Source of the DNA: a plasmid
Strand: one strand, 5' to 3'
Sequence record: NZ_CP084005.1
Length of the DNA stretch: 29,994 nt
The translations under genes and the position numbers were made by a program. Of this stretch, positions 1-24,278 are shown piece after piece. Within the stretch, counting starts at the first letter, position 1. The number at the start of each line of letters is the position of its first letter. The notes beneath the pieces are model-generated. The model had not been told where the DNA came from and searched no databases. It saw only the letters and a program-made list of their open reading frames with translations.

Positions 1-131
1 CGTCCGACACATTCGATGCGGGGGCGTTTTCTCCCTCCCTGTCGCCTCGAGAAGAGCAGTTTGTTCGACTGCTGCTCAAAGGGAAAACGCCGGCGGAAAT
101 TGCCAGGGAGACGGGTACGAAGCCATCGACG

Positions 132-1298
132 GTGCGAACAACGCTTCACCGAGCATACGGGAAGGCATCGGTTGCGGGCTCACGCGAGCTGGTGGCGCTG
201 TTTGCGGGTGGGGGCGATACTGTAGGGCATGAGCTACCGCAGCGGCATGCTGACGATATAGTGGCATCAGCTCGAACGCGCCGGCTGTTTCGATACCTGC
301 TCACATTATTCTTTATCCTCCTTGCGGCGGGGCCCTTGGTAATGGCGGATAGCGATTGGGGGTCCGGTGTTTCGCGGGCTGTCGCCTTTTCCCTCTTAAG
401 CTACGCATTGGGTCTCGGACTGCTTCTGTCGCTACGCTACGCGGGTGGAAAAGCGAATCGTGGCGCTGCGCTGGATAGAGCGGGTGAAGCGATTTGGCTC
501 GGAAGCCCGTACGTATGGGCGGTGCTGTCTGCCGTGGAATGGTCTTTTATCTATATCGCGGCATTGATGTGCATACGCGTTCCGTTGATGGCTGCGCCGG
601 TCCTGCTGTGCGGCGTGGCATCTACGGTCTCGCTCGCCGTTGGGCTGCGTCCGTTTAAGGTGCATGCCCGTGTCCGGGCTATCGTGCCGTTGGTGTCAAT
701 AGGTGTCGCTGCTTCAATCTATGCGGCCAGTAGGGGGCGAATCCATGGGTTCGCGGTGCTGACGGGGATGTTGCTCACATACATAGTGCTGCGTAGCTGT
801 CCGCAGCGCAAAATGCTTGGGATATGGATGCTTTGCTTCGGGGCGACGGCTCCTGTTTGGGCTGTCTTGCTCAACATGGCGCAGGATCTGACGGTTTTCG
901 AGCCGTTGTTCCTCGCGTCGTTGCTGGGGCAAAGTTCGGCCGTCAATGTCGTCGTGGCAACGGTGGTCGTCTGCTGGTCTGTGCCCATGTTCGTCACGCA
1001 CATCGCGCTCGCCCGCTCGGTTGAGGACGAGAAGGCCGTCTTGGAGTACCGGGCGAACGGGTCCACCGAAACGGCCCGCGTGCGCCAGCTGGCCCTGCTT
1101 ACGTCGCGCTCCCTTTCTGATGTTCAGTCGAAAATTTTGCTGATGACGGCAGAGGGGGCAACGACAAAGGCCATTGCGCAGGATGTCGGTTACGCTGCAT
1201 CTACGGTGCAAGCGCTGCGATCCGCGTCCTATCGCCAGTTGAAGATCAAGAACAAAGCAGAGCTTATTTCATTGTTATCGCAGGTAGATAACGTGTAA
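132..1298 (+). CDS. Membrane-anchored LuxR-family transcriptional regulator (polytopic N-terminal membrane domain plus C-terminal LuxR-type HTH). The true start is uncertain because the frame is open to the window start; ATG 342 is the first in-frame ATG after the upstream HTH.
   Basis: Several hydrophobic helices (LLTLFFILLAAGPLV, IYIAALMCIRVPLMAAPVLLCGVASTV, IVPLVSIGVAASIYAA, etc.). They are followed by a C-terminal LuxR HTH motif, SDVQSKILLMTAEGATTKAIAQDVGYAASTVQALRSASYRQLKIKNKAELISLL. The same frame upstream (nt 3-200) encodes another LuxR HTH, LSPREEQFVRLLLKGKTPAEIARETGTKPSTVRTTLHRAYGKASVAGSRELVALF, with no intervening stop. Confidence 0.6.
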   Translation: MRTTLHRAYGKASVAGSRELVALFAGGGDTVGHELPQRHADDIVASARTRRLFRYLLTLFFILLAAGPLVMADSDWGSGVSRAVAFSLLSYALGLGLLLSLRYAGGKANRGAALDRAGEAIWLGSPYVWAVLSAVEWSFIYIAALMCIRVPLMAAPVLLCGVASTVSLAVGLRPFKVHARVRAIVPLVSIGVAASIYAASRGRIHGFAVLTGMLLTYIVLRSCPQRKMLGIWMLCFGATAPVWAVLLNMAQDLTVFEPLFLASLLGQSSAVNVVVATVVVCWSVPMFVTHIALARSVEDEKAVLEYRANGSTETARVRQLALLTSRSLSDVQSKILLMTAEGATTKAIAQDVGYAASTVQALRSASYRQLKIKNKAELISLLSQVDNV

Positions 1299-1407
1299 AC
1301 GCCTGGATTATCAACTCAATAGCGAGTGTTTACAGACATCTTTCTCCATTCATGCAAAGGTTACCGTGCGTCGACGCATTGTTAGCCGCTTTTGATTGGA
1401 GAAGGCC

Positions 1408-1920
1408 ATGATTAAGCCAAGGAGCGCTATTGCTCGAATCGGAGTCGGCTTGGCGATTGCTGCGGGTCTGTCCCTAGGGGTTCCCGCTGCATCGTTCGCG
1501 CAAGAGGAGTTTGACACCTCTCAGGTTTCCAGCATTACTCAAAACGCCGATACGGGAATTACGACCTGTACGAACAATGCCGATAGGGCATTTAGTTTTC
1601 AATGTGCCGGGACGAGTGCAACTGGCTACCGTCAAAAGGATGATTCCTCATCGCTCTATCTGGATATCCAAGGTTATACGGGAAATCCGCTTCGGTTATA
1701 TACAGACGGTGCGTATAACACAAGCGGTAGCGGCAGCATGAATTGTACTCAGGGAACGTATCGTTCGAATCACAAGGGACAGTGGGAAATGTATAACCTC
1801 GTCCGTGAGAACGGGCGATCTGCGGCGCGACTGACTGCATGGGCGGAGTCTGGCTACGGCACTGTTATTGGTGTATGGAGCCCCGACTGCGTCGGGCATT
1901 TCCGCAAGCTTCCCGCATAG
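1408..1920 (+). CDS. Secreted hypothetical protein (Sec signal peptide, 4 Cys, Gly/Ser/Thr-rich mature part); possible bacteriocin-like or accessory protein for the downstream ABC transporter
   Basis: ATG 1408 preceded by GGAGAAGG; N-terminal MIKPRSAIARIGVGLAIAAGLSLGVPAASFAQ (AxA cleavage-like); directly upstream of permease/ATPase genes. Confidence 0.5.
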   Translation: MIKPRSAIARIGVGLAIAAGLSLGVPAASFAQEEFDTSQVSSITQNADTGITTCTNNADRAFSFQCAGTSATGYRQKDDSSSLYLDIQGYTGNPLRLYTDGAYNTSGSGSMNCTQGTYRSNHKGQWEMYNLVRENGRSAARLTAWAESGYGTVIGVWSPDCVGHFRKLPA

Positions 1921-1974
1921 TTGTTTGAATTGGCTCCCTTCCGGCTTTCTGGGTCGGAAGGGGGAGGAGGACGT

Positions 1975-2856
1975 ATGAACCAAAGGCTCGTAAGATATGA
2001 GCTGTCGAAAACGATAAGACGCCCAGCTTTTATCTTTGCTCTCTTGATTGCAGTCGCAGTTGCAATAGCTGCTGCGCTGGAGCCGTGGGCAAATTTGGAA
2101 AAAGAACGTCACAACCTTCTTTCTTTTGGTTACGGCGTTGGCATGCAAGCCAAAAACTATCTCGGTCAAACACGTGAAAGCAGCTTCGGTAACTGGATTG
2201 TTGTGAGCGCGAACGCGCCACTGTCTGCGTCGGTGTTTTTCTATGCACTGCCCCTGCTTGCAATGTTGGCCGGATCTTGGTCGTGCCTCTTTGAGCGTTT
2301 GAGTGGTTATGACATGCAGATATGCACGCGCGTTTCCAGAAAGGCATACGTGAACGTAAAGGTGCTGTCTGCTTTCCTCTCCGCGTTTACAGTGACTGCC
2401 ATTCCTCTGCTCGTCAATTTCCTGATTGTCTCGATGCTTTTTCCTGCGTATCTTCCTCGGGTCGATGAGTCGACCTACGTAGGGCTTTACCTGCATAGCT
2501 ATTTCTCCGGTCTATTTTATTCACATCCTTTGTTATATGTGCTTGCATACACGCTGTTCGATGCGGTCACGCTCGGGACTTTATCCATGGCTGTAACTGG
2601 CTTCTCAATTTTGTTTCGTAGCAGAATCAAAGCGATAATTGTCCCGTATCTGCTAATGGTTGCGTGGCATTTTGCAAATGGCTGGATCTTCGGCGTAATG
2701 GCTTGTGTGGGGTTTAACTGCAATATCTTCAACAGCATCAGGTCGGAATCGCTGAATAACTGGCCAGACATTCGAGCCGGTTTTGCGGAAATCATATTAT
2801 TGACCCTTGCTTCGTTGGCTTTTTCTGGGGCGTGGAAAAGGCGGGAGATGGTCTGA
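1975..2856 (+). CDS. ABC-2-type transporter permease-like membrane protein (6 predicted TM)
   Basis: ATG 1975 behind strong RBS GGGGGAGGAGG; multiple hydrophobic helices; stop TGA overlaps next start (TGATG at 2854-2858). Confidence 0.55.
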   Translation: MNQRLVRYELSKTIRRPAFIFALLIAVAVAIAAALEPWANLEKERHNLLSFGYGVGMQAKNYLGQTRESSFGNWIVVSANAPLSASVFFYALPLLAMLAGSWSCLFERLSGYDMQICTRVSRKAYVNVKVLSAFLSAFTVTAIPLLVNFLIVSMLFPAYLPRVDESTYVGLYLHSYFSGLFYSHPLLYVLAYTLFDAVTLGTLSMAVTGFSILFRSRIKAIIVPYLLMVAWHFANGWIFGVMACVGFNCNIFNSIRSESLNNWPDIRAGFAEIILLTLASLAFSGAWKRREMV

Positions 2857-3692
2857 TGCTGTTTAGGCTGGTCGCCGCGGACCTGAGGACCGTTTTGAAG
2901 AAGAACATCATTACCTTTATTGCGATTGCGGCAGTGACCGTTGCGAACCTGGTGTACGCCTACGGTTTGTCTTCTGTGTATGGGGTCAGGACGGATGCCT
3001 TGGGGTTTGCGGACAATCTTGCGCTCGTGTTTGCCGGATCTGCTCCGTTTGAGCCTAGGCCCGGGGTCATGTTTGTGCCTCCGCTAGGATGGCTATTTCT
3101 CATTCTGCTTATTCTCTATACAACACTCGATTATCCCGCCGAATCGTTGCACGGGTTTGGTTTGCAAACGCTTGTCCGATGCCGGGCGAGAACCCTTTGG
3201 TGGGTCTCGCGTTTTATCTCAGTGGCGGCGATAACAGCATTTTCGCTGCTCGTGGTGGTTTGCTCTGTTGTGATTTGGAGCTTGATGGTGAGTGCCTCGT
3301 TCAGCGCGGTCATCCATGGCGAGTCGCTTCAGCTGGCTAATTTGGCGCCGTGGTTTCTCAAGGCGAGCGAAGCAGGTGCACTGCCGTTTTTCGCAGGTCT
3401 CTTTCTTGCTTTTGAGGCGCTTGCGTTTGTGCAGGCAACGGTTGGGTTTGTGCTTGGGCCGTCAGTTTCATTTGCGGTTGTAATGAGCTACCTGATCTGT
3501 TCGGCATATGCGCGGCATTGGGCGCTACTGGGAAATGCCTTGATGCTGTTGCGCTGGGGTGGAATCGTCAAAGAAGGAATTGCGACGGGCTCGAGTGGCT
3601 TGTTTTCAATTGTGATTATGTCGTTATGCCTATCGTTGGGTGGACTGTGGTTTCGAAGGGCCGACCTTATCGAAAAGAGGGACAAGATATGA
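2856..3692 (+). CDS. Second ABC-2-type permease-like membrane protein
   Basis: In-frame ATG 2856 overlapping upstream stop; polytopic hydrophobic protein; stop overlaps ATPase start (ATGA at 3689-3692). Confidence 0.55.
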   Translation: MLFRLVAADLRTVLKKNIITFIAIAAVTVANLVYAYGLSSVYGVRTDALGFADNLALVFAGSAPFEPRPGVMFVPPLGWLFLILLILYTTLDYPAESLHGFGLQTLVRCRARTLWWVSRFISVAAITAFSLLVVVCSVVIWSLMVSASFSAVIHGESLQLANLAPWFLKASEAGALPFFAGLFLAFEALAFVQATVGFVLGPSVSFAVVMSYLICSAYARHWALLGNALMLLRWGGIVKEGIATGSSGLFSIVIMSLCLSLGGLWFRRADLIEKRDKI

Positions 3693-4333
3693 GTGTGATC
3701 GTTAGGGACGTATCGAAGCGCATGGGCAAAAACGATGTCCTGCGCAACGTGTCTATCGAGGTTGACCCTGGGACTGTGGTCGGGCTTCAGGGGATAAACG
3801 GTTCGGGCAAGACCATGCTCATGCGAGCGGTCTGCGGATTGATTAGACCTACCGAGGGCGAGATCATTATCGATGGCCAAAGGCTTGGGGCGGACATCTC
3901 GTTCCCGCCGAGTCTGGGGATGTTGATCGAGGCGCCTTCCTTTTTGGGATATCTGTCTGGCTACGACAATCTGGAACTCATCGCTCAGATCAAGGGCGTT
4001 GCCACCCCCGAGGACATTCGCTCTGCCCTGCGGCTCGTGGGGCTCGATGCAGACGAAAAAAAGAAGTTCCGAGCATACTCGCTTGGGATGAAGCAGCGTC
4101 TGGGGATAGCTGCGGCGATTATGGAGAAGCCGAAGCTGCTTGTTCTCGATGAGCCAACGAATGCCCTCGACGAAGCGGGCGTGGAAATGCTCAAGCGCGT
4201 TGTGGCGATGGCGGCATCAACGGGTCGCGAGGTCCTTCTGTCCAGCCATGACGGAGAGGTGCTCGAGGAGCTGGCCGATCGGGTTTACTGCATGCGCGAC
4301 GGTGCCGTTGTGGAAGTTCGGGAAAGGTCGTGA
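3689..4333 (+). CDS. ABC transporter ATP-binding protein (ABC-2/lantibiotic-immunity-like ATPase, about 214 aa)
   Basis: Walker A GINGSGKT, signature YSLGMKQRL, Walker B LLVLDEPTNALD, H-loop SSHD; RBS AAGAGGGA 6 nt upstream of ATG 3689. Confidence 0.85.
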   Translation: MSVIVRDVSKRMGKNDVLRNVSIEVDPGTVVGLQGINGSGKTMLMRAVCGLIRPTEGEIIIDGQRLGADISFPPSLGMLIEAPSFLGYLSGYDNLELIAQIKGVATPEDIRSALRLVGLDADEKKKFRAYSLGMKQRLGIAAAIMEKPKLLVLDEPTNALDEAGVEMLKRVVAMAASTGREVLLSSHDGEVLEELADRVYCMRDGAVVEVRERS

Positions 4334-4338
4334 GCGCG

Positions 4339-4998
4339 ATGAAGAAGACCCTGTGGACGAGAAGATCGGCGCTCGCGCTTTTTTGCTGTGCTGCTGCCGG
4401 CCTTGCGGGCATGAGGGTGAGCGTCGTTAACGGGAACCGGACGGTCATTCCTGAGAAATATTACGCGGAGGGCGAATGGCTCTCGATGGATGGAGCGTTT
4501 CTGGGATCGAAGGATGTGGTGACTGATGGGTATTCGTTTTGCATAGACGGGGCAGAACTACTCACGCCGCGCGAGTATCTCAAACGAGCACATGACGATT
4601 ATTCAAAATATGGCACCGTGGATACGAAAACGAGACTGAAGGATGCCGACATCACGTGCGTTATCGCCGTAAAGATGCGTGTCAGAAATAGGGATAATAT
4701 CGACGGTGGAATCAAAGCGTATGTTTGGCATCTGGTTCCGGAGTCTGCGCCAAACTATGACTTTGTGGTCAATACCGATCTGATAACGCAGGCAATGCCG
4801 GTGCTGGGCGGTTCTGCTGCGTTTGCTGTACAGGTTGGGGCGGAGAACGAGTTGCTCGTCCCATTCATGATGCAAAACACCAACGACTATTTCGAAGGTT
4901 ACGAGACCGTCCGTTTTGAGAAGGCTTTTCCCGGGACCTATACGATGAAGATGACCGATCTGCCAGAGAGAAGGCTCTTAAGGTTTGAAGTGAAGTAG
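4339..4998 (+). CDS. Secreted hypothetical protein (signal peptide MKKTLWTRRSALALFCCAAAGLAG)
   Basis: ATG 4339 immediately after ATPase stop; hydrophobic N-terminal signal; no recognisable catalytic motif. Confidence 0.5.
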   Translation: MKKTLWTRRSALALFCCAAAGLAGMRVSVVNGNRTVIPEKYYAEGEWLSMDGAFLGSKDVVTDGYSFCIDGAELLTPREYLKRAHDDYSKYGTVDTKTRLKDADITCVIAVKMRVRNRDNIDGGIKAYVWHLVPESAPNYDFVVNTDLITQAMPVLGGSAAFAVQVGAENELLVPFMMQNTNDYFEGYETVRFEKAFPGTYTMKMTDLPERRLLRFEVK

Positions 4999-5574
4999 CT
5001 CGAAGATCCCGCAGTTCGCGACGAGCTCCTTGCGCGCCGCGGCTACGCAAGGGAGATTCGCAACCGCTATGCCGGCTCCGTTCCCGATGCCGGTGACGAC
5101 CGCGTCCGCGCCACCGGCCAGGCGCACGGCGGTGGCGCCGTGTCGCGACAGATGGACGATCGCGTCGTCGATCGCGGTGACTACTCGCGCGGCGACACGC
5201 CCCGCTAGTTTTGAACTGTCCTGCCCTAGCGCGTTGCAATTCAATCAGCTGTTACAGAATCCTGGAAGAAAGGGTCGAACCGAAGTGTCTGGCCGGACGC
5301 CAATTGTCCGGGAACTGCTTCTGGTTCGGCCCTCTTTTACTTTACTTCCATGGCCGTGCAGCGGTCTAGTACTCCTTGACCGGATGCTTCTCACCGAAAC
5401 CACCGTCGATGCCGAATCGGCACAGCCTGTCGATGGCACGAAGATGCTCGTCGATGGCGGTTGCGATCTGGGTGTCGACCTCGCTGTCGTGGTCGTTGAG
5501 ACCGCGGACCGCCTCGTCGGCGGCCATGAAGGCCTTGATGGCCTGATTGAACTGAGCCCTAAAGATGTCGAGCG

Positions 5575-6094
5575 TGTGACCGGGGTTGTCGCGTCGCCGT
5601 TTGAGGCTCAGCTGTCCTTATTGCTTGCGACGCCGCGCGTCGCCGGTGGCGAGGGTCTCAGATCCTTTAGCAACAATGCTCGCATTGTCCTTTCGGGCAA
5701 GGCAGCGCGTTTGGCCGGGCGCTACAACTGCTATGCAGACTTCCTATTTGAGGAGACGGGTGACAAGAAGCCGCTTGTCGTCGAGTGCCAAGGCAGGCTT
5801 GTGCACGGTGGGGCCGATGCCGCAATGTCGGATTCCGATCGCGCCACCGCATTGCAGCAAATGGGTTTCAACGTCATGTTGCTGACGTATCAGCAAATCG
5901 CCGATGAGAAGAACTTCGAGATAGTGAAGCGCATGTTGTTTGAGGAGATCGGCTTGGAGTATCGCGAGAAGACGGACGCCAGCTTGATGCGCAGCGCAGT
6001 CTTCGTCGCGAGCTCTTTATCGATTGGAACACGCTGGGGCGCTAAAGTTTCCGAGCCTTGCCCTTACCTCTGCTCTTGCGAAACCTTGCAGTGA
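5575..6094 (+). pseudogene. DUF559 / Vsr-like endonuclease-fold domain protein, probably a truncated remnant (N-terminal extension of ORF 5030..6094 looks spurious)
   Basis: C-terminal YADFLFEETGDKKPLVVECQGRLVHGGADAAMSDSDRATALQQMGFNVMLLTYQQIADEKNFEIVKRM resembles the conserved DUF559 core (DFLWPE..RLVVEVDG..H......D.RRD..L...G..VLRF); no clear start/RBS. Confidence 0.35.
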
Positions 6095-6554
6095 ATATAA
6101 GGGGCGTTGCAATAAGCAATAGTTCGAATGCAACAGCGCCGACAATCATCGCCTTGCAGTCGTCGGACAACGGGTTAAGGGCCGCAAGCAGCGAGAAAAC
6201 GCCGCACTCGAGCTCAAACCAGGCCACCGAGCGAGCACTTGCGAGATACCAAGCATCCTTCTCGTCGCTCTCGAGACCGGCAGGCTGGTTCCAATGCTCT
6301 GGACTGACCAGATGGAGAACGAGGGCCAAAAGCGCGATGCAAGCCAGCATGACAATAGGGAGGAGCAACAGCTCGACAGAAGAGCCCCAGCGGTTCGGCT
6401 GCATGTCAACGCCGTAGTGGACGGGGACCTTCTCTCCGGTGGGCACTGCTGCGATAGCAAAACCTGTCAGCACGACGCTGCAAGCGCCGGTTAGCCACCC
6501 CATCGCTTCTACTATGCGAACATCCTTTGTTATCCATGGCGCTTTTTTGGGCAT
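6042..6554 (-). CDS. DUF1648/SdpI-like membrane protein
   Basis: N-terminal TM then VPVHYGVDMQPNRWGSS motif typical of DUF1648 (IPIHWN..GE.D..GSK), followed by 3 more TM helices; RBS GAGAAGGAGGGG upstream of ATG 6554. Confidence 0.45.
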   Translation of the reverse strand: MPKKAPWITKDVRIVEAMGWLTGACSVVLTGFAIAAVPTGEKVPVHYGVDMQPNRWGSSVELLLLPIVMLACIALLALVLHLVSPEHWNQPAGLESDEKDAWYLASARSVAWFELECGVFSLLAALNPLSDDCKAMIVGAVAFELLLIATPLIFTARFRKSRGKGKARKL

Positions 6555-6903
6555 AACCCCTCCTTCTCAACTGCGGAGGCTCGGTCTGCCATCTCGCGCT
6601 CGAGCCGATGTACGACTTCCATTAAATCGCTCATGCTATTCCTTTCCCCCGGGTGTTCTGTCTAATATATCGCCCCGTGCGGACACGATTCTCACCTAAG
6701 GAATGGCAATGGTGTGTTCATAAACACGCAGATAGACGACTTAACAGGATTCGATTTACGGGGCGATTGAAGCTGTGGTGGTGCGGATGCCCCGACCCGC
6801 GGCACGACTTAACCGCCGTTATGTTAGCGACATGTCTAACATAACGGCGGCGCAGGGCGCTCACTCCCTGCGGCAACGCCGATTCCGGGAAGGCACGCCG
6901 GGG

Positions 6904-7185
6904 CTATGCCGACCTGAGTATCCTCTCGGCCTTCTCGATCGCGGCCGAGCGCAGGAACTCCGACTTCCGCATCCCGCACGCGGCGGCCGCCCTTTCGATG
7001 AGGTCGGCGCCCGTCTTTGGGCACTTGAAAGACAGGTTGGCGTTGGCCTCCACCTCGGAAAGCCTGGGGCGGCCGACTCGGAGGTTCACCAGGCTCCCCT
7101 CCCAGGAGCCGGATTCGTATTCCGCGCACTCGCGCTCGATGTCCTCGTCCGTGATAACGGATCCGTTTGCAAGCCTGTACTCCAT
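6904..7185 (-). CDS. BrnA-like ribbon-helix-helix antitoxin (type II TA)
   Basis: C-terminal RHH signature GRPRLSEVEANANLSFKCPKTGADLIERAAAACGMRKSEFLRSAAIEKAERIL; RBS AAGGAGAGG; start ATG overlaps toxin stop (TGATG). Confidence 0.55.
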   Translation of the reverse strand: MEYRLANGSVITDEDIERECAEYESGSWEGSLVNLRVGRPRLSEVEANANLSFKCPKTGADLIERAAAACGMRKSEFLRSAAIEKAERILRSA

Positions 7186-7451
7186 CAGTAACCTCTCCTT
7201 CTCGCGTTCTCGATCTCCCTCAGCGTCTTCTTGCTCGGCGGCGTCATGGCGTGGTAGACGAGCCACGCGCCGTCGGCCAGGAGGACACCGACCATCTCGA
7301 TGTACCGGCCTTGCGGGTCGTAGCCCGTTCGCATCTCGCGCTCCCCGGGGATGCGGACGGCCGCGAAGCAGTAGCTCTCCCACGCCGCCTCGACATCACC
7401 GTCATCTAGCTCGGGGTGCCGCTCGTGAACTCTCTGGTGTATCCGGACCAT
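7185..7451 (-). CDS. BrnT-like (DUF497) toxin, putative ribonuclease
   Basis: About 88 aa; ...GRYIEMVGVLLADGAWLVYHAMTPPSKKTLREIENARRRGY resembles DUF497 C-terminus (GRLLVVV...IRIISAR.ATKKERR.Y); toxin-first gene order as in brnTA. Confidence 0.45.
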   Translation of the reverse strand: MVRIHQRVHERHPELDDGDVEAAWESYCFAAVRIPGEREMRTGYDPQGRYIEMVGVLLADGAWLVYHAMTPPSKKTLREIENARRRGY

Positions 7452-7665
7452 GAGCCTCCAATCTTCACGATAATATTCTACTACTATTTGGTAGTAGAAT
7501 ATTAGGCATTCCAACATATTCCATTGGCCTTTCGTCCCAAAACGTATGCCTCTGGGCACTCGAAAATCGAACCCTCGATGCCGTGAACGTCGAGTGCCAA
7601 AACCCAGTGTCAAAACCTCCGCGTCAATTCCCATGGGAAAATCAAATACGAGACAGGAGGCTGAA

Positions 7666-8250
7666 ATGACACGTTACGGATATGCTCGCGTGAGCACGAA
7701 AGACCAGAGGTTGGACCGCCAGATCGAGGCTCTGGTGAACGCTGGCGTGGCCTATGGCCATATCTACAAGGACAAGGTCACGGGTGCCCAGGACGGCGAC
7801 CGGACGCAGCAGAAGCGCCTGTTCAAGAAGATGCGGGCGGGCGACGAGGTGGTGGTCGAATCCTGGGAGCGCTTGACCAGATCGACCAGGCAGCTGCTCA
7901 ACTATGACCTTATGTTTCGAAACCTCGGCGTGAAGCTCACGTCCCTGAAACAGCCCGTGGATCTAGATACCGCATTCGGGCGCTTCGTGCTTGGCACCCA
8001 TGCTTGCACCGCGGAACTTGAGCGAGATCTGATCAGGCAACGCCAGGCCGAGGGTATCGCCGTCAAACGGAGCCACGGCGGCAACGTGGGTGGCAGGCCT
8101 CGCACTGCCGGCGTCAAAGCCGATGCCGCAGTAAGGCTCTATCTTGGAGGAGAGACTCCTATTCCCGATATTTGCGCTGCGACTGGCGTCTCCAAATCAA
8201 CGCTGTACCGCATCCTTCGTGAACGCGGATTGGTGGGCGTCAGGAAATAA
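7666..8250 (+). CDS. Small serine recombinase (resolvase/invertase family) with C-terminal HTH
   Basis: MTRYGYARVSTKDQRLDRQIEAL catalytic-Ser motif; C-terminal ICAATGVSKSTLYRILRERGL HTH; RBS GACAGGAGG before ATG 7666. Confidence 0.85.
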   Translation: MTRYGYARVSTKDQRLDRQIEALVNAGVAYGHIYKDKVTGAQDGDRTQQKRLFKKMRAGDEVVVESWERLTRSTRQLLNYDLMFRNLGVKLTSLKQPVDLDTAFGRFVLGTHACTAELERDLIRQRQAEGIAVKRSHGGNVGGRPRTAGVKADAAVRLYLGGETPIPDICAATGVSKSTLYRILRERGLVGVRK

Positions 8251-8475
8251 GTCCGTCTGTCGTTTCGCGATTTGCCTAATAGGCCCGAGTGCGGCGGCGT
8301 TACTATATAAGGGTGCGGTATTTCTCTAACCGAAAACCTGCGTGAACGCATGACTTGAGACGCCTTTCTAGAACTCACCGATCGCAGGAAAAAGACAACT
8401 CAACAGCGGCCGTGCATTGTTCCCAGCCATATGGCATGGCGGAGCCATGCCCGTTGTTGATTGGAGTGCCGCATC

Positions 8476-9168
8476 ATGGCCGAAAACCAAGTCCAGTCCG
8501 AAAAGAAAATGACCAGTCTGAATGTCTCATCGGAGACCCGTGACGCCATAAAGGACATCAGCACGAGCCTTGGTCTCTCGCAGGCCGATACCGTCGCCCT
8601 CTTGGTCGATGGCTACCACCCTAACGCCACTCCCGGCGTGAAGGCTGCGCTCGACGCATCGGCCGTCCTCGATGAGGCGGTCGAGCGGGTCAAGCGCATC
8701 ATCGTGGGCGCTGCCGAAGCTGCCGCGATGGAGGCTCGTGCTGCCCGCGAGGACGCCGACGCTGCCAAGAAAAGTGCAATGGAACAGATTCAGAGCATCA
8801 AATCTAATTGCGTCGAGCAGGTCGCCGCCATCAAAGAGAAATTCGAGCTGGATACTGCGAGCTTGGAGATTGAGAACGATGAGCTCCACGCCACCGTCGC
8901 CGATTACCTCTCGCAGCTCAAGAAGCTCGATTCCGAGAACAATCAGCTCTTGGCAGAATCAGCCGCAAAAGACGATCGAATTGAAAGCATGAGGGGCGCG
9001 GTCGACGCCGCGGCCAAGGCTCAGGCCGATCTCAACGTCTCCCTCCTCGCCCAGCGTGACCTGATGGCCGAGGTCGCCGCCCTCAAGGACCGCCTCGCCG
9101 CCTCCGAGCAGCGGGCGGCCGTGGCCGAGGCCAAGGTCGAGGTCATGACCCAGGCGAGGGGCGAGTAG
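8476..9168 (+). CDS. Ala-rich coiled-coil DNA-binding-like protein (KfrA-like; N-terminal RHH-like strand-helix then long coiled coil)
   Basis: N-terminus SLNVSSETRDAIKDISTSLGLSQADTVALLV (beta-strand plus helix like RHH/MobC motifs); remainder heptad-like AAEAAAMEARAAREDADAAKK...; RBS GGAG 8 nt before ATG. Confidence 0.4.
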   Translation: MAENQVQSEKKMTSLNVSSETRDAIKDISTSLGLSQADTVALLVDGYHPNATPGVKAALDASAVLDEAVERVKRIIVGAAEAAAMEARAAREDADAAKKSAMEQIQSIKSNCVEQVAAIKEKFELDTASLEIENDELHATVADYLSQLKKLDSENNQLLAESAAKDDRIESMRGAVDAAAKAQADLNVSLLAQRDLMAEVAALKDRLAASEQRAAVAEAKVEVMTQARGE

Positions 9169-9414: not shown

Positions 9415-9927
9415 ATGGAACATCTCTCTGTTAAAAAGGCAATCAACCTGGCTCGGACTCTCGGCGTCGCCGGTCTTTTGGCGGTTGCCCTGGTCACGAC
9501 CTCTGGATGCATTCGTACAGATAATCACCAGCCGGAAGGCCAGGTTTCCACCTCTGATAGCTCGCAGGAAGAGGGCGCGGTTTACGGCAAGATGGAGTAT
9601 TCAATCACCGGCGTCGAGGTACATGATTCGGCGGATGACGATGGCGGGAAGGTCGCCGTTGTTCGCTGGCACGCCATCAACAACCGAACCGCAGATTCCT
9701 TTGCCACTGGAAGCTACATTACGGCCTATCAGAATAAGCAGATGCTTCATGGCGGTCTTGCCGCCGATTTGCAGGAAGATTCCTTCTCTTCGCAAGGGCT
9801 TGCGCCGGGAGGCGAATGCGACGGTGTGTCGATTTTCGAACTCAATGACATGTCCCCCGTTGAAATTAAGATCAACGGCACGAGCGCTGGATCGAACTCT
9901 CTCGACCAGACCTTTGAATTGGAATAG
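9415..9927 (+). CDS. Lipoprotein (lipobox LVTTSGC), hypothetical
   Basis: Signal peptide LARTLGVAGLLAVALVTTSG-C; RBS GGAG before ATG 9415. Confidence 0.55.
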   Translation: MEHLSVKKAINLARTLGVAGLLAVALVTTSGCIRTDNHQPEGQVSTSDSSQEEGAVYGKMEYSITGVEVHDSADDDGGKVAVVRWHAINNRTADSFATGSYITAYQNKQMLHGGLAADLQEDSFSSQGLAPGGECDGVSIFELNDMSPVEIKINGTSAGSNSLDQTFELE

Positions 9928-9958
9928 GCCTCATAGCATCTAATTTTCTAGAAACCTT

Positions 9959-10696
9959 CTAGAGCATTTCTAGGAGGTTTCTAGAACCGAGCGCGGCATC
10001 TTCGATCGACACGATGTCTTGGTAGATCAGGCGGTGCTTGGCGTCGCACCACTCGTCGCCGTGGTAGTGGCCGAAGAACCAGGCGCGGTAGCCGAGCTGA
10101 CCGTCGAGCTCGGCAAGGAATCGCTGAAGCCGGTCGCCCCGATACTCGCGCCCGCGCTCGCGACACAGCTTCTCCGCCAGGGCGGCAGGGGCCTCGTGAG
10201 TCACAACGTAGTCGACCTTCCAGCCCACGCGGTCGAGCGAGGAGCGGCAGTGCTCCGTCTCTTCCTCGCTCGGCATCTCCTCGGGCCACCAGCTCCTCCC
10301 CTCTTTGCGATACTGCCTGTCGTTGCTCGCGGCGCCGCCCATGGCAAGGACCGTGAGCCCGTCGATATCGAACACCTCCCCGCGCATCAGGTGCAGCACG
10401 TGCGGTCGCGCCTCATGGACGAGCCCGCCGTTCCACTCCCGCACCGGCAGCCCGGCCAGGGCGTGGTGGTTCTCATGGTTGCCGTCTACGAAACACGTGG
10501 TCCAGGGCTTCGATTCGAACCAGTCGAGCCAGTATTTCTCGGCGTTGGATCCATCCCAGACAAAGCCGAAGTCGCCGGCCACGATCACTGCGTCATCGCG
10601 CGTCAGGGTCCGGCCCAGTGGCCAAGACCTGAAGGCGAACCTGCTGGCCCCGTACTCGGCCCTGCCGTGCACGTCTCCCGTCACATAGACAGCCAT
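9959..10696 (-). CDS. Metallophosphoesterase (calcineurin-like phosphoesterase), paralog 1
   Basis: MAVYVTGDVHG ... AGDFGF ... VDGNHE ... GHYHGDEW metal-binding motifs; start shares one nt with upstream stop (TGATG). Confidence 0.8.
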   Translation of the reverse strand: MAVYVTGDVHGRAEYGASRFAFRSWPLGRTLTRDDAVIVAGDFGFVWDGSNAEKYWLDWFESKPWTTCFVDGNHENHHALAGLPVREWNGGLVHEARPHVLHLMRGEVFDIDGLTVLAMGGAASNDRQYRKEGRSWWPEEMPSEEETEHCRSSLDRVGWKVDYVVTHEAPAALAEKLCRERGREYRGDRLQRFLAELDGQLGYRAWFFGHYHGDEWCDAKHRLIYQDIVSIEDAALGSRNLLEML

Positions 10697-11421
10697 CAGT
10701 ACGCACCCCACGGCAGGAGTTTGTCCCCGAGCCTCACGATCCGGTCGTACAGCACGGTATGACGTTCGTTCGGGTTGCCGTCTCGGTGAAAATGGCCGTA
10801 ATACCAGCGCTTATAGTCCAGGCGATCCTCGAGCTCGTCGAGGAATCCGGTCAGCCGGTCCACATCAGGGCGCTCCCAGCCTGGGTCCGGGTAGAGCGTC
10901 GGCGAGAGCATGCGCGTCGAGCAGGTATGGGTGATGACGCAGTCGACCTTCCAGCCGACCTTGTCGAGCTTTGTCCGCGCGGTATCGAAATCGCGCTCGT
11001 CCGGGAGCTCCTGAGGCCACCAGCTGGAATACGGCACGCGGTATTCCCTGTCCACGCTCGTGGCACCGCCCATGGTGAAGACCGTCGAGCCGTCGAGCTC
11101 GAAGACCTCGCCGCGCATGAGGCGGCGGATAGACGAAGTATCCGACAGACGTTGCGTCAGCCCGCCGTGCCACGGCTCCATGGGGCGCTCCTCCCAGTGG
11201 TCGAAGCGCTCGTGGTTGCCGTCGACGAACAGTGCCGTGTAGGGGCGCGACTCCAGCCAGGCGATGTCGGCGCATTCCTCGGCAGAGAAATCCCACGGAA
11301 AGCCAAAGTCACCGGCAACGATGAGGTAGTCATCGCCGGTAAGGCTATCCCCAAGCTCCCAGTCGCGGAGCTTTTGCATGTCGAGCCCACCGTGGATGTC
11401 GCCCGTCACATAGACCGTCAT
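10696..11421 (-). CDS. Metallophosphoesterase, paralog 2 (N-terminal 190 aa of ORF 10696..11991 appear spurious)
   Basis: MTVYVTGDIHGG ... AGDFGFPWD ... VDGNHERFDHWE ... GHFHRDGN; ATGA overlap with upstream gene at 11418-11421. Confidence 0.75.
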   Translation of the reverse strand: MTVYVTGDIHGGLDMQKLRDWELGDSLTGDDYLIVAGDFGFPWDFSAEECADIAWLESRPYTALFVDGNHERFDHWEERPMEPWHGGLTQRLSDTSSIRRLMRGEVFELDGSTVFTMGGATSVDREYRVPYSSWWPQELPDERDFDTARTKLDKVGWKVDCVITHTCSTRMLSPTLYPDPGWERPDVDRLTGFLDELEDRLDYKRWYYGHFHRDGNPNERHTVLYDRIVRLGDKLLPWGAY

Positions 11422-12056
11422 CGGATCGCCTCTTCCCTCCTGTACGCCGCCAGCTCGCGCTCGACCTGCCTGTCGCCGGTCTCGTTGACCCACCAGGGCC
11501 ATTTCACCCGGCCGCACGGCTCGTCGACTCCGGCGAACCATTCCCTCAGCTCGTCGAGGCTCACCGGGGAGTGCCCGTTGGCATCGCAACCGACGTCGTA
11601 GCGCAGAAGGCCCTGCTTGCGGTTGAACTCGTTGTACGCGCCGGCGCTGCTGTGGATGTGCCCGTGGAGGTGCCACGATCCATGGCTCATGCCCTGCCAG
11701 TCGGCCATGGGGTAATGGCTCAGGACGATCTTCTGCCCGTCGATCTTGAGCACGCAGATCGGCGGCTCCACGGTGAAGGCGCCCGCGACCGCCGGCTGGG
11801 TCCAGTCCTTGTCGTGGTTTCCCGGGACGAGGTGGATGCGCCTGCAGGCGATCCGCTTGCGCAGCCCGTAGGCGTCCTGGGCGGTCATCTTGAATGAGAA
11901 ATCCCCCAGGATGTAGAGCTCGTCGTCCACGGCAACCCTGCCGTTGATGTTGTCGACGATGGCGTCGTTCATCTGCCAAATCGTCTCCCACGGGCGGTCG
12001 GTGAACTTCAGCACGTTCTCATGCCCGAAGTGGGTGTCGCTGGTGAACCAGATCAT
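11418..12056 (-). CDS. Metallophosphoesterase (Metallophos_2/YfcE-like family member)
   Basis: MIWFTSDTHFGHENV ... LGDFSFK ... VPGNHD ... HLHGHIH motifs; RBS AGGGAGAC before ATG 12056. Confidence 0.8.
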   Translation of the reverse strand: MIWFTSDTHFGHENVLKFTDRPWETIWQMNDAIVDNINGRVAVDDELYILGDFSFKMTAQDAYGLRKRIACRRIHLVPGNHDKDWTQPAVAGAFTVEPPICVLKIDGQKIVLSHYPMADWQGMSHGSWHLHGHIHSSAGAYNEFNRKQGLLRYDVGCDANGHSPVSLDELREWFAGVDEPCGRVKWPWWVNETGDRQVERELAAYRREEAIR

Positions 12057-12947: not shown

Positions 12948-13007
12948 ATGGATCCCCCTTTTTCAATCCATCAATTGCGATAGATCTTCTAGAAATTTGG
13001 CAAAAGC

Positions 13008-13033
13008 GTACTCATGCAACGTTGCATGAGTAC
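13008..13033. promoter_or_regulatory. Perfect 26-bp palindrome GTACTCATGCAAC|GTTGCATGAGTAC built from the iteron half-site, just downstream of dnaB
   Basis: Exact reverse-complement symmetry read from sequence; arm matches iteron GTTGCATGAGTAC at 15826-15938. Confidence 0.7.
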
Positions 13034-14405: not shown

Positions 14406-14511
14406 ATTTGGCCTTCCTACTGCGTACCAATGCAACGTTGCATGAATACGCAGTTGAATAATCTGATATTTTCTAGATATTTTCTAGAAAATATCTAGAT
14501 TTATCCCTTAA

Positions 14512-14543
14512 TGCGCACTGATGCAACGTTGCATCAGTGCGCA
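14512..14543. promoter_or_regulatory. Perfect 32-bp palindrome TGCGCACTGATGCAAC|GTTGCATCAGTGCGCA (iteron-related operator/terminator) abutting the stop of the Rep-like gene
   Basis: Exact symmetry; core TGCAACGTTGCA shared with palindromes at 13008 and 14431. Confidence 0.7.
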
Positions 14544-15516: not shown

Positions 15517-15705
15517 CTATTTTTCCTCATCGCCAGCCCGATCCTCGCGCTCATGAAGCATCTGGTTGCGCAAAAGCACGCCGATATACCCGGACTTGTT
15601 CATTCCGGTCTGCTCGGTAACCTCGGTAAGATAATCCACGAGCTCAACGGGAAGGGTGAGCAACACGCGCTTCTTGGACGGAGTTGCGTCCTTCTTGGAT
15701 TCCAT
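15517..15705 (-). CDS. Ribbon-helix-helix (CopG-like) protein
   Basis: KKRVLLTLPVELVDYLTEVTEQTGMNKSGYIGVLLRNQM matches RHH beta-alpha-alpha pattern; located between iteron array and Rep-like gene. Confidence 0.5.
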   Translation of the reverse strand: MESKKDATPSKKRVLLTLPVELVDYLTEVTEQTGMNKSGYIGVLLRNQMLHEREDRAGDEEK

Positions 15706-15825
15706 CTCAAATACCTTTCTGGCCGAATTTACATTGCAAATAGTATATCCGTATATATCACGATGTTCAAATATATTTCTTCACGGTTGAATGCGTTGTC
15801 ATAACCCCTTAACGCGTACTCATGC

Positions 15826-15938
15826 AACGTTGCATCAGTACATAACGTTGCATGAGTACGCACATAGCGTTGCATGAGTACGCATTTATGTTGCATCAGT
15901 ACGTGATAAATAGGGGTTAACGTTGCATGAGTACATGT
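15826..15938. repeat. Iteron array: 5 direct repeats of RYGTTGCATSAGTACR (starts 15829, 15847, 15869, 15890, 15922; about 21-22 bp spacing for the central three) flanked by inverted TAACCCC/GGGGTTA; candidate replication origin
   Basis: Read directly; the repeat unit is the half-site of the palindromes flanking dnaB. Confidence 0.75.
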
Positions 15939-16735: not shown

Positions 16736-16993
16736 CTATCGGTCTTCGTTTTCCGCCTCTTTAAGCAGTTCATCGACAGCGTTCTGCATCACAGCTGTCA
16801 TCGTCCTGCCCTCCTGCTTGCAGTAGGCCTTCAGGGCTGCGTGCTTCTTTGCCGACACGTAAAACGTAATCATCTTGCGCTCGTCGGTCCCGGCATCACC
16901 CTTGTGTGCGGTGTCCTGGTTGTCCATGAGGCGCTTTTTGGCCGGCTTGGTGTTGTTGTTGGCAAATGCATTGAAGTTATTTTTAACGGCCAT
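16736..16993 (-). CDS. parG: ParG-like ribbon-helix-helix partition/centromere-binding protein
   Basis: Basic unstructured N-tail then KMITFYVSAKKHAALKAYCKQEGRTMTAVMQNAVDELL RHH; overlaps parA 3' end by 11 nt. Confidence 0.65.
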   Translation of the reverse strand: MAVKNNFNAFANNNTKPAKKRLMDNQDTAHKGDAGTDERKMITFYVSAKKHAALKAYCKQEGRTMTAVMQNAVDELLKEAENEDR

Positions 16994-17597
16994 TCAGGGC
17001 CTCCCTGAGCTCGCTGTAGACGTCATCGTATCCGTAGAGTGCCGATCCGAACGGCAGCCCGAAGTAGCCCTTCAGGTCCTCCTTCTGGCGGATCGCCGTG
17101 TCGAAGTAGGAAATACCGCCGGCGGCAAGGTTTTCCTGCGCAGCCTTGAAACCGTTGGTGTTCGTCAGCACGCGGGTAAGAAGCACGGCGTACGGCCTCC
17201 CGTTCGCTTCCATCGTTTTCACGGTCTCGGCCGTTTTCACGAGGTCTGCGTTGCCGGTGCCGGTCGGCACGATGACGAAGTCCGACGCGTCCTGCGCCGC
17301 GTCCAAGATGGCCCCATTGGGTGGGCAATCGATGAAGGCCCAGCGGCCCGGATCGCCTTTGAACTTCTTCGCCGCCCGTTTGACGGTTGCGGGGTTCGCG
17401 GCGTCGACGGCGAAGGGAAGTTCCTCGCCGTTGTCCTCGGCGTTATCGGCCCAGAAGGTGGCCGATCCTTGCGGGTCCGCGTCGAGTACGACGACTTCCT
17501 TGCCGTCGCGAGCGGCGGCCGTCGCGAGCGCGATGCAGCTCGTCGTCTTGCCCACACCGCCCTTCAGATTGATCAGCGAAACGATCATTTTTTGCAC
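16983..17597 (-). CDS. parA: ParA/MinD-family partition ATPase
   Basis: Deviant Walker A LKGGVGKTTSCIALA; VLDADPQGSATFWA; about 204 aa. Confidence 0.85.
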   Translation of the reverse strand: MQKMIVSLINLKGGVGKTTSCIALATAAARDGKEVVVLDADPQGSATFWADNAEDNGEELPFAVDAANPATVKRAAKKFKGDPGRWAFIDCPPNGAILDAAQDASDFVIVPTGTGNADLVKTAETVKTMEANGRPYAVLLTRVLTNTNGFKAAQENLAAGGISYFDTAIRQKEDLKGYFGLPFGSALYGYDDVYSELREALNGR

Positions 17598-17615: not shown

Positions 17616-17742
17616 TTCTAGAACATTTCTAGAAACCTTCTAGATTCATTTTACCGCACCGCAACGTTCCATAACCCATGAATCCCTACAAATCTAGAAA
17701 TACTCTAGAAGTTTTATAGAAATTTCTAGAGTATTTCTAGAT
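17616..17742. repeat. Two arrays of TCTAGA hexamers phased at 11 bp (3 copies at 17616/17627/17638 and 5 copies at 17693/17704/17715/17726/17737) in the parA promoter region; candidate centromere/operator
   Basis: Read directly; exact 11-bp periodicity; similar arrays at 9946, 14472, 18232, 23895. Confidence 0.75.
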
Positions 17743-17821
17743 ACAATCACGATCACGCGTACCTTTCTGGTTTGCGCCTTGATACGATAAATGAAGACTC
17801 AGTTGGGAGAGGGAGGGGGTT

Positions 17822-17995
17822 GTGGTGACTGGCTTTTGGCAAGTGTTTGCACTTCTGGGCCACCTCGGTTTTGCAACGGTCCTTACCGTATGGCCGAACG
17901 ACTTCGGCCGTCATCCCCGCCTTATCCGTGCCATCGGCATTCTCGGGTTGATCACCGGCGCCCCGCGCGTTCTTCGATTTGGCCTAGCTATTTGA
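17822..17995 (+). CDS. Small hydrophobic protein (57 aa, 2 predicted TM), divergent from parA
   Basis: GTG start behind strong RBS GGGAGAGGGAGGGGG; VTGFWQVFALLGHLGFATVLTVW and LIRAIGILGLITGA helices; overlapping ORF 17791..18093 in other frame looks like P/R/S-rich noise. Confidence 0.3.
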   Translation: MVTGFWQVFALLGHLGFATVLTVWPNDFGRHPRLIRAIGILGLITGAPRVLRFGLAI

Positions 17996-18786
17996 GAAGC
18001 GACGGCGCGGCAGACAAGCAGATTAAGGTGGAAGGAAATGACCAGGCACCCACCGCGCCGCCATCAAAAGTGTATCGCTCGCCTTCAACCTAATAGTTCC
18101 TAATAGTGCCCATGCACCTGACTATTAGCGACTATTAACCTAAAGACCCTGAAAATTCGTCTATTAACCGGTATCACCGCAGGAAGATAGCCAAATCCAA
18201 ACGCCTCAACACCTGGAAGCCAACAATTAATTTCTATAATTCTTCTAGAAAATCCCTAGAAACCTTATAGAAGAATTATAGATTCAACTCATGCTGCGTC
18301 CCTTTTCGTTTCGGGCATACTGTCGGCAAGAAGACGATTTCAAGGAGGCGGACATGCTCCAGAACGTACTTGGCAGCGACGGACAGATGCACGTCGAGAA
18401 CCAGGTCGGCAACATGAGAATCGACCTCACGACCGGTGAGACCAAGACGGTCGTTCCGTGAGCCGGTGGTATGAACACGGTCATTGGCCCCGACGGGACC
18501 CATACCGAGTTTCAGACCGGCCAGATGCGCCAGACTCTCGGTAAGCCTGGGTTCGACTGGTTGTTCAATAAGCACTGACAAACGGTCGGTAAAACATAGG
18601 CGCTCTTAAAAATATGTGACCATAAGACCAGGCTAACATGTGCTCACAGACATATAGTCACAGCTGTAGATCGGTTTAATCCGCAGTCCGTAAGCTGAAG
18701 CTGCCTCAACGACCCGTGGTTGGCGAGACGAAAAAGGGGAATCCCTTTTGCGGGATTCCCCTTTCCGAGTCGTTATGCGATTTGCA

Positions 18787-22065: not shown

Positions 22066-22204
22066 TGTGCTGTTCCATTCCTTTTCCGTGCCCTATCCGA
22101 CTGGGCATCAGAGTGCTTTCCAATAGAGACAATTATGCGCCTTAACTGGGATTGTTGTATATAGTCCGTTGGCTTTTATACAACAATCCATGACTCTTTT
22201 TGTC

Positions 22205-22426
22205 ATGGATACGAAGACGCTTCAGAAATCATTCGGCATGAGATGCAAAGAGCTCCGCGCTGGACTCGGGTGCAGCCAGGAGCAGTTCGCCAATTTGATT
22301 GAAATGGATCGTTCCTACTACGCGAGCATTGAAGTCGGGCGGTGTAATGTCAGCCTCTCAAATCTCAAGAAGATTGCCGACGGATTTCAAATCAGCATTG
22401 CTGAACTCATGAGAGGCGTCAGCTAA
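22205..22426 (+). CDS. XRE-family (Cro/C1-type) HTH transcriptional regulator
   Basis: MRCKELRAGLGCSQEQFANLIEMDRSYYASIEVGRCNVSLSNLKKIADGFQISIAEL HTH_3 pattern; 11-bp inverted repeat ATTGTTGTATA/TATACAACAAT at 22151-22187 just upstream. Confidence 0.7.
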   Translation: MDTKTLQKSFGMRCKELRAGLGCSQEQFANLIEMDRSYYASIEVGRCNVSLSNLKKIADGFQISIAELMRGVS

Positions 22427-22486
22427 ATTTATCCGTCTCATAGTTCACAGTGGGTCTCGTTGATTAGTGCCTTAAGAAAATGGAAA

Positions 22487-22565
22487 TCGTCCCAACGAGC
22501 TATCGTCAATCGTCCCAATAAATTACCGTCAATCGTCCCAATAAGTAATCGTTATTTGTCCCAAC
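22487..22565 (+). repeat. Four direct repeats of (AA)TCGTCCCAA(Y) spaced 23-24 bp (including an exact 18-bp duplication CGTCAATCGTCCCAATAA) upstream of the ATPase gene, followed by TATAAT at 22580
   Basis: Read directly. Confidence 0.7.
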
Positions 22566-23880: not shown

Positions 23881-24230
23881 AGCTATTTGCATTTCCAGAA
23901 ATCCTCTATCTAGACGCCTCCTAGAGGATTTCTGGAAACAACCGGTATTTTGATCTGGGCTACGAAAGGTTACGGGTCCAGATTCCGTGCTGCGTGGAGC
24001 CGGTGATCTTGTATCCGTGGCGGTCGATTCACGCCGCAAGCCTGTCCCAGTCGATGCGTTTCCAGTTGCCGCACGGCGCGTGGTTCACGATGAGCCCGCC
24101 GGCGACCATGAGCGCGTGGTTGCGTGCCTTGCGCGCCTCGCGCGCGAGCGCCCTCTTCTTGTCCGAAATCTGGACCTCGGCCTGCTTCTTCTTGCATTAA
24201 AGCCTGAACCAGGTTCAGCTGGCATGGTTA

Positions 24231-24262: not shown

Positions 24263-24278
24263 GTCCCGGCCGGTTGCT

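Follow-up and report, generated by a model that had tools for sequence, protein, structure and literature searches.

At the partition locus of plasmid TP228, two sets of boxes precede the ATPase gene, 12 in the parH centromere and 8 in the adjacent OF operator, and dimers coat them cooperatively (PMC3130281). In TP228, the repeat unit is ACTC, a tetramer that is not palindromic; AT spacers of 4 bp (base pairs) give it an 8-bp period, and all boxes are located upstream of parFG (PMC3130281). In plasmid pSM19035, the dimeric ribbon-helix-helix (RHH) protein omega binds arrays of 7-10 repeats at PcopS, Pdelta, and Pomega, which are operators as well as the centromeres parS1-3, and omega links copy control, partition, and addiction (PMC2441792). 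The heptads recognised by omega (7 bp, WATCACW) are contiguous and may be direct or inverted; a protein helix wraps around them, and all omega sites are found at promoters (PMC2441792). The N-terminal tail is disordered in both ParG and omega (PMC3130281; PMC2441792). Here, phased arrays of the hexamer TCTAGA are described in a 29,994-nucleotide (nt) stretch of plasmid DNA (sequence record NZ_CP084005.1; the whole stretch that was analysed is referred to as the window), which also encodes a short ParA ATPase and a small ParG-like RHH protein. To our knowledge, the partition systems of plasmids from gut Coriobacteriia are essentially undescribed.

The arrays co-occur with the ParA/ParG-like pair in all related loci in which the region upstream of parA is present. 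We consider it probable (roughly 0.7) that they serve a ParG-like type Ib partition system as centromere and operators, in which the ParG-like protein is predicted to be the binder.

Phased TCTAGA arrays in the window

TCTAGA occurs 19 times in the window, compared with 3.71 +/- 1.73 (maximum 9) in dinucleotide shuffles, and among pairs of hexamers within 60 bp of each other 7 are spaced by exactly 11 bp, 3 by 22 bp, and 1 by 33 bp. When up to two mismatches were allowed in the core TTCTAGAA, 16 pairs at 11 bp were found versus 0.34 +/- 0.61 (maximum 4) in 200 dinucleotide shuffles, which confirms the 11-bp phasing that had been noticed in an earlier inspection of the letters (the sequence-only reading). 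The tetramer CTAG is depleted in the window (41 copies versus about 112 from base composition), strongly so outside the arrays, which hold more than half of all its copies. The symmetrised array unit is (T/A)TCTAGA(A/T) followed by three variable bases, and its commonest variant, TATAGA/TCTATA, resembles a -10 element. The TCTAGA arrays are a real, conserved, and non-random family of cis-elements. TCTAGA is absent from positions 1-7900 of the window and past 23914.

TCTAGA at seven or more module boundaries had been claimed by the sequence-only reading, at coordinates of which some are one base off; six arrays (A1 to A6) and two convincing single sites were found. Two arrays precede parA. A3 (17616-17645; three units, hexamer starts 17617, 17628, and 17639) is the proximal par array and the proposed operator; it is located between a -10-like hexamer and the parA ribosome-binding site, is not palindromic, and folds weakly (z -2.1). 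A4 (17692-17742; five units, hexamer starts 17693, 17704, 17715 (TATAGA), 17725, and 17736) is the distal par array and the proposed main centromere, and consists of 18-nt halves around a central TTATAGAA unit, which are inverted because the step at the centre is 10 bp. A2 (14471-14500; three units, hexamer starts 14472, 14483, and 14494) is found in the rep-dnaB intergenic region upstream of dnaB, where its sequence TCTAGATATTTTCTAGAAAATATCTAGA forms a perfect 28-bp palindrome with inverted iteron pairs (14424-14449 and 14515-14540) on either side; A2-type arrays upstream of dnaB are conserved in relatives.

The remaining three arrays are located at the ends of genes. A1 (9946-9986; four units, hexamer starts 9947, 9958, 9969 (TCTAGG), and 9980) has the sequence TTCTAGAA-ACC-TTCTAGAG-CAT-TTCTAGGA-GGT-TTCTAGAA, a palindrome with 18-nt arms that folds at -28.8 kcal/mol (z -6.1). 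It is positioned between a DUF5067 gene (9415-9927, plus strand) and the convergent metallophosphoesterase gene 9959-10711 (minus strand), and, as the sequence-only reading had noticed, it contains the stop codon and the last approximately 8 codons of the latter. A1-type arrays are conserved in more than 50 Collinsella loci, with compensatory changes. A5 (18232-18283; five degenerate units, starts 18233 (TCTATA), 18244, 18255 (CCTAGA), and 18266 and 18277 (both TATAGA)) is located at the end of the CAP-domain operon, forms a palindrome whose arms are 15 nt long, and starts right behind the stop codon of the gene 18284-18484 (minus strand); in the related locus L001, its homologue has four units in a perfectly palindromic arrangement, with TCC/GGA in place of the spacer pair TTC/GAA. 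The 66-amino-acid product of 18284-18484 is 97-100% identical in relatives and about 45% identical in plasmids of the pCaero1 type, where it is called as a gene. Finally, A6 (23893-23937; four units, starts 23894 (TCCAGA), 23909, 23920 (CCTAGA), and 23931 (TCTGGA), at steps of 15, 11, and 11) is located between the stop codon of a DUF4143 ATPase gene (23880) and the next open reading frame (ORF; 23987-24307). It is a palindrome with 16-nt arms, the outer cores of which are changed symmetrically to TCCAGA and TCTGGA, while TCTAGA is present in both outer units of its homologue in L161.

Single sites had been reported at 8368, 12987, and 16111. Exact copies of TTCTAGAA are found at 8366-8373, between the resolvase gene and ORF 8461-9168, and at 12987-12994, just 3' of dnaB and 13 nt from the inverted iteron pair 13008-13033; the latter site is conserved in relatives. 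The sites at 16111 (GTCTAGAC) and 7962 (ATCTAGAT) may be due to chance.

The ParA/ParG-like pair and the arrays upstream of parA

The short ParA ATPase encoded by 16983-17597 (minus strand; 201-204 amino acids) is type Ib-like: it is of the Walker type, lacks an N-terminal DNA-binding domain, and matches the Pfam families CbiA, AAA_31, and VirC1 from residue 4-5 onward, while its score against the NCBIfam model ParA_partition (115.8 bits) is under the equivalog cut-off of 180. Directly downstream, and overlapping by 11 nt, lies the ORF for the proposed binder of the arrays (16736-16993, minus strand; 85 amino acids). As the sequence-only reading had suspected, this protein is of the RHH type and resembles ParG: its score against the Pfam family ParG (PF09274) is 23.6 bits, above the cut-off of 21.4, and with the profile of its family the best solved relative in the PDB is TP228 ParG (1p94, E 9e-4). 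In the AlphaFold (AF2) model, residues 1-34 are disordered (predicted local distance difference test score, pLDDT, below 50), as is typical of the flexible tail of small type Ib RHH proteins, and are followed by a confident strand-helix-helix RHH core with the beta region RKMITFYVS (38-46) and helices at 47-60 and 64-82. ParG 1p94 was the top match in a fold search with this model (43 residues superposed at a root-mean-square deviation of 1.5 A), and Arc, CopG, CdbA, and further RHH proteins ranked next. The ParG-like family is small and comprises 13 clusters, all at least 69% identical, in which the beta region RKMITFYVS is invariant; the DNA core is invariant too, which speaks for the ParG-like protein as binder. 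The tail, predicted to be disordered, carries a motif (K/R)LMDxQD...GD that is common to the Collinsella ParG-like proteins and a Bifidobacterium homologue (pNAC3, L139 4941-5192), and which is a candidate ParA-contact motif.

The continuity from the relaxase to the LuxR gene that is seen in L091 indicates that the window probably represents about 98% of a circular, mobilizable Collinsella plasmid of approximately 30 kb, and therefore the comparison of array density with the rest of the chromosome became one with other plasmids and genomes. Phased TCTAGA arrays were found upstream of parA in every related locus that covers this region, in at least six gene backgrounds and down to 69% identity. 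In L001-L008 arrays are present upstream of parA, and in the 24-kb relatives the arrays are at positions equivalent to those in the window; arrays also precede parA in L131-133 and L137-138, which have ParG identities of 69-70%; in L137 and L138 (69% identity) the parA array has five units. L131 (ParG 70%) has only ParA, ParG, and the resolvase in common with the window and contains 18 TCTAGA hexamers in 5.2 kb, in at least seven phased arrays, while L137 shares ParA and ParG only. Moreover, in an unbiased, protein-based scan of metagenomes arrays preceded parA in each of the 22 loci that contain this region, and the scan added the backbones L161 and L163, the latter with 20 TCTAGA hexamers in 11.6 kb. 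Two Collinsella plasmids, pCaero1 and 'plasmid 7', have much cargo in common with the window and encode an unrelated ParA and CopG pair; upstream of their parA no TCTAGA was found, and other repeats are present there. The Bifidobacterium plasmids pNAC3 and p1CACC514 encode a 39%-identical ParG homologue with a different beta-strand (VMTTFQMD), and TCTAGA is absent from the whole of both plasmids, in which parA is preceded by an AT-rich region of the AAATA type.

A scan of one genome per species, in which three exact phased hexamers were required, yielded 120 loci. Homologues of window proteins are carried by 60 of these, all of which hold TTCTAGAA-type arrays and which, where a source is listed, originate from Collinsella or Coriobacteriaceae. 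The other 60 have no protein in common with the window, and simple tandem repeats or isolated matches make up most of them. Among the 13 loci from outside Collinsella that were inspected, phased TCTAGA arrays had no ParA or RHH protein as a consistent neighbour, and most of these arrays are simple tandem repeats or due to chance.

The layout at parA is also conserved. In the window, L001, L007, L131, L161, and L163, a distal array (4-5 units) is followed by 44-47 bp ending in TAAAAT or TAAGAT, then 3 nt, a proximal array (3-4 units), a ribosome-binding site, and parA. In the window this -10-like hexamer is TAAAAT (17648-17653, minus strand), 3 nt upstream of A3, and is the putative parA promoter by its resemblance to the consensus; it was recognised solely via the comparison of relatives, and neither the arrays nor a sigma-70-type promoter at parA came up in a promoter/terminator consensus scan. 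In its occurrence, arrangement, and conservation, the short-repeat array upstream of parA corresponds to that of a type Ib system, and a role as centromere and operator is predicted for it. In L131 and L163, arrays precede most genes, and in L163 several small genes in a row have a three-unit array 5-10 nt ahead of their ribosome-binding site, which fits a plasmid-wide repressor such as omega.

In the proposed mechanism, each dimer of the ParG-like protein would bind one palindromic TCTAGA core via its paired beta-strands and, because the cores are 11 bp apart, the dimers would be aligned on one face of the DNA and bind cooperatively. A4, upstream of the promoter, would serve as the main centromere and recruit ParA, and A3, which has the -10 element on one side and the ribosome-binding site on the other, would cover the transcription start and leader and act as an autoregulatory operator. 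A2 would put the upstream region of dnaB under control of ParG, beside iterons bound by Rep. A1, A5, and A6 would be accessory binding sites at gene ends, acting as extra centromere or pairing sites or as roadblocks, and these long palindromes would probably also form hairpins that end or insulate transcription.

Several observations weigh against this interpretation. Binding of the arrays by ParG is a prediction, and the link between the specificity of ParG and the motif is one of presence and absence: the beta-strand residues and the DNA core are both invariant within the ParG-like family, and the contrast is provided by the distant Bifidobacterium homologue only. A1 and A5 are at gene 3' ends and A6 is behind the ATPase stop codon, which are not obviously promoters, and the plasmid encodes a second, CopG-like RHH protein upstream of rep (15517-15705) and an XRE helix-turn-helix (HTH) protein (22169-22426). 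Furthermore, A1-type and A6-type arrays and another palindromic array persist in pCaero1 and 'plasmid 7', both of which are without this ParG, a status that refers to the plasmids or 8-kb loci themselves, and some core changes retain the palindrome yet abolish TCTAGA or the 11-bp phase. Something besides ParG therefore maintains these arrays. The proposal of the sequence-only reading that one repressor coordinates replication, partition, and cargo is supported in part: arrays are found at the parA promoter and upstream of dnaB, but the rep promoter lacks TCTAGA and contains 22-bp iterons, so that control of replication would be restricted to the upstream region of dnaB. It does not account for the arrays at 3' ends, which are palindromic, show compensatory changes, and are kept in ParG-less plasmids; A1 and A5, being at the 3' ends of genes, cannot be classical operators.

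Predicted hairpins, possible other binders, and module boundaries

A palindromic arrangement had been noticed for A6, which is correct but not special to this array: A1, A2, A4, A5, and A6 are all palindromes over their entire length, including the 3-nt spacers (ACC/GGT, ATT/AAT, ATA/TAT, TTC/GAA), and fold into hairpins, the stems of which measure 13-19 bp (-18 to -29 kcal/mol, z -3.7 to -6.1). Among 17 distinct variants of the phosphoesterase junction, pairing covers 98% of cells and three pairs are changed on both sides, with U-G intermediates, versus a mean of 1.1 in shuffles, in a set of related sequences whose loci were ascertained through exact cores. The core change CCTAGA...TCTAGG (L098, L066, and plasmid 7) keeps the palindrome, as does TCCAGA...TCTGGA in A6 relative to TCTAGA...TCTAGA in L161, and plasmid 7 retains the stem without the 11-bp phase. 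Among 51 distinct arrays, the complementarity of mirrored spacers is 55% versus 42.5% in a spacer-shuffling null, and many arrays, notably those in L131 and L163, are non-palindromic. A subset of the arrays, mainly those at gene 3' ends, seems to be under structural constraint as RNA hairpin or DNA cruciform; alternatively, their symmetry may stem from quasi-palindrome correction. A second, structure-based role is likely for some arrays. Since the stems, which are long but A+U-rich, have no T-run behind them, and the terminator scan flagged none, the arrays are not canonical intrinsic terminators.

Strong folding of five arrays, pairing and two-sided changes at the phosphoesterase junction, palindromes that outlast changes of core and phase, complementary spacers, and persistence without ParG would all be accounted for if the arrays were mainly structural palindromes that act as bidirectional terminators, insulators, or RNA stabilisers at operon boundaries, without dedicated ParG binding. 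We consider this explanation unlikely for the system as a whole. A hairpin does not need the 11-bp recurrence of one hexamer, and the proximal par arrays and most arrays of L131 and L163 are strictly phased though non-palindromic. Moreover, the arrays track the ParA/ParG pair, those of L163 are close upstream of ribosome-binding sites, the stems lack the T-run and the terminator call, and quasi-palindrome correction could explain the compensatory changes without selection. It is slightly less likely still that the arrays belong to a different binder, i.e., the CopG-like RHH protein, the XRE HTH protein, Rep, or a Collinsella host factor. Such a binder would explain why arrays are present in plasmids without this ParG, why an array of L134 is located upstream of an RHH_5/Rep-like operon, and why iteron pairs adjoin A2 and the site at 12987. 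The distribution of these proteins argues against it: L131 and L137 are rich in arrays yet have only ParA and ParG (and the resolvase in L131) in common with the window, and pCaero1-type plasmids encode the XRE protein (94% identical) and the resolvase but have few arrays. The distribution of the arrays is not matched by the CopG-like RHH protein, Rep, the XRE protein, or the resolvase in the way that it is by ParA/ParG.

Rep moreover has its own, second repeat system of 22-bp iterons with the 14-nt core GTACTSATGCAACG, of which 12 good copies are present versus 0.2 expected. The iterons cluster in direct and inverted orientation at 15816-15934, upstream of the CopG-like gene and rep, in a promoter region that has iterons and no TCTAGA. 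On these grounds the TCTAGA arrays were rejected as Rep iterons, which are direct repeats of about 17-22 bp that cluster at the origin beside rep, a role that is filled by the separate family, and the CopG-like protein was rejected as first-choice binder, as its own promoter is without TCTAGA. Inverted iteron pairs of 26 bp (13008-13033, 14424-14449, and 14515-14540) occur at both ends of dnaB; since they flank A2 and adjoin the site at 12987, the dnaB region appears to be addressed by both the iteron and the TCTAGA system. Two further repeats were observed elsewhere in the window. A 23-bp repeat, AATCGTCCCAACAAGTTATCGTC, is present in 3.5 copies at 22485-22565 between the XRE HTH and DUF4143 ATPase genes, which makes it a candidate for the operator of the XRE protein. 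The resolvase ORF starts with two tandem copies of a 13-bp repeat, AGTGCCAAAACCC (7593-7617), which are conserved in pCaero1 (L009 10393-10417) and are a candidate res site.

Breaks of homology are found near TCTAGA sites. Relative to pCaero1, homology ends at 12933, 54 bp from the site at 12987, and resumes at 18338, 55 bp from A5 (counterpart boundaries at L009 15693 and 20750), so that DnaB, Rep, the iterons, ParG, and ParA have been exchanged as one block between these two positions. Other homology blocks end 0-25 bp from A3, A4, and A6, and the left neighbour of the A1-type array varies among loci up to about 5 nt from the array. In pCaero1, a 44-bp perfect palindrome of the TCTAGA type is retained (L009 16160-16200), adjoining a remnant of a window-type iteron and pCaero1's own, different 22-bp iterons.

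The swapped replicon core, the block ends at A3, A4, and A6, and the variable neighbour of A1 could suggest that the arrays are recombination sites or hot spots for module exchange, as resolvase substrates or as palindrome or pairing joints, and that protein binding is secondary. This explanation is considered very improbable, as breakpoints in a mosaic are expected at operon ends anyway, and the A1-type array is internal to a conserved cassette that extends from the resolvase to the phosphoesterase genes. Res sites are unlike phased hexamers, and the arrays are not favoured in that role, the resolvase having its own repeats at 7593-7617. The breaks in homology may reflect operon ends only, or a role of the arrays in module exchange. 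A combined explanation, which is rather improbable, is that the arrays are dual-purpose connectors, serving for docking of ParG, as operon-end insulators that are maintained for their structure also in the absence of ParG, and as preferred joints for swaps of modules in the plasmid pool of Collinsella, e.g., by recombination between paired or cruciform-extruded arrays. If this were true, the centromere repeat would double as the recombination grammar of the plasmid family.

The plasmid family and its relation to known systems

Relatives of the window are contigs of approximately 24-30 kb from human gut metagenomes and Collinsella genomes. One ParG variant is indexed in 162 blocks of an assembly collection, and the plasmid family with the ParG-like protein is common in human gut metagenomes. 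In PLSDB, a near-identity search with the window matched the CAP gene region only, and the replicon type of the window is therefore absent from that database; a search of a phage collection gave no match, and an Rfam scan of the whole window gave zero matches at the gathering threshold. Pfam scans recognised a resolvase, two metallophosphoesterases, DnaB, a CAP-domain protein, a DUF4143 ATPase, an ABC ATPase, and NikA-like proteins, as well as a candidate winged-helix Rep that is preceded by the CopG-like RHH gene, and a relaxase gene that extends past the end of the window. The two metallophosphoesterase genes are in tandem and overlap (9959-11991, minus strand). The cassette of resolvase, ORF 8461, ORF 9171, DUF5067, A1 array, and phosphoesterases recurs in many Collinsella contigs, some of more than 100 kb, and may also be integrated in chromosomes or reside on larger replicons.

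The sequence-only reading had placed divergent small genes beside parA (17791-18093 and 18276-18581). These ORFs do not look gene-like, with low-complexity translations and no gene calls in relatives, and are probably not real genes. The stretch between A4 and A5 (17743-18231) is a conserved non-coding region of approximately 490 bp that is 77% identical to L001 (versus 94% in its flanks) and contains CTAATAGT repeats at 18090 and 18100 on the plus strand and at 18121 and 18131 on the minus strand; it could be an origin or encode a non-coding RNA.

The system may be of use as a stability cassette in vectors for Collinsella and Bifidobacterium, and the arrays as a sequence signature for binning of these plasmids. 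In addition, it would provide a testable link among centromere arrays, hairpin formation, and module exchange.

The analogy with omega and ParG that had been drawn by the sequence-only reading is apt, because a ParG-like RHH protein is encoded behind a short ParA, and the arrays accompany this pair and are absent where the pair is unrelated. As in TP228 ParF/ParG, a small RHH protein whose N-terminal tail is disordered comes after a short ParA, and two separate arrays, distal and proximal, are located upstream of the ATPase gene. Unlike in TP228, the unit is a palindromic hexamer with an 11-bp period, the arrays are dispersed over at least six sites that include gene 3' ends and coding sequence, and many are wholly palindromic; the sequence identity to TP228 ParG is low (E 9e-4). 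The logic of one protein and many arrays that is proposed for the window is that of pSM19035 omega, but the spacing is 11 bp, the dimers are proposed to be on one face of the DNA, the rep promoter is excluded, and several sites are outside promoters. Pfam and PDB searches with the ParG-like protein gave no homology to omega, and the repeat is TCTAGA, not WATCACW.

KorB of the IncP-1 plasmid RK2 is a partition protein and a global regulator with about a dozen dispersed operators, some of which are far from promoters; it is an HTH protein of the ParB family that binds single 13-bp palindromes. The sites around the plasmid are a likeness to KorB, while the combination of an RHH protein with phased arrays is unlike it. 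Arc of phage P22 places RHH dimers about one helical turn apart on one face of the DNA, at TAGA-type boxes, and the 11-bp one-face arrangement is therefore feasible for RHH proteins; Arc has a single 21-bp operator for two dimers, no arrays, and no role in partition. In comparison with known type Ib systems, the array unit, the spacing, and the dispersed sites are new. If the ParG-like protein binds the arrays, they would represent a new geometry of RHH centromeres, with palindromic cores one helical turn apart, and, next to omega, a second clear example of plasmid-wide sites for a small RHH partition protein.

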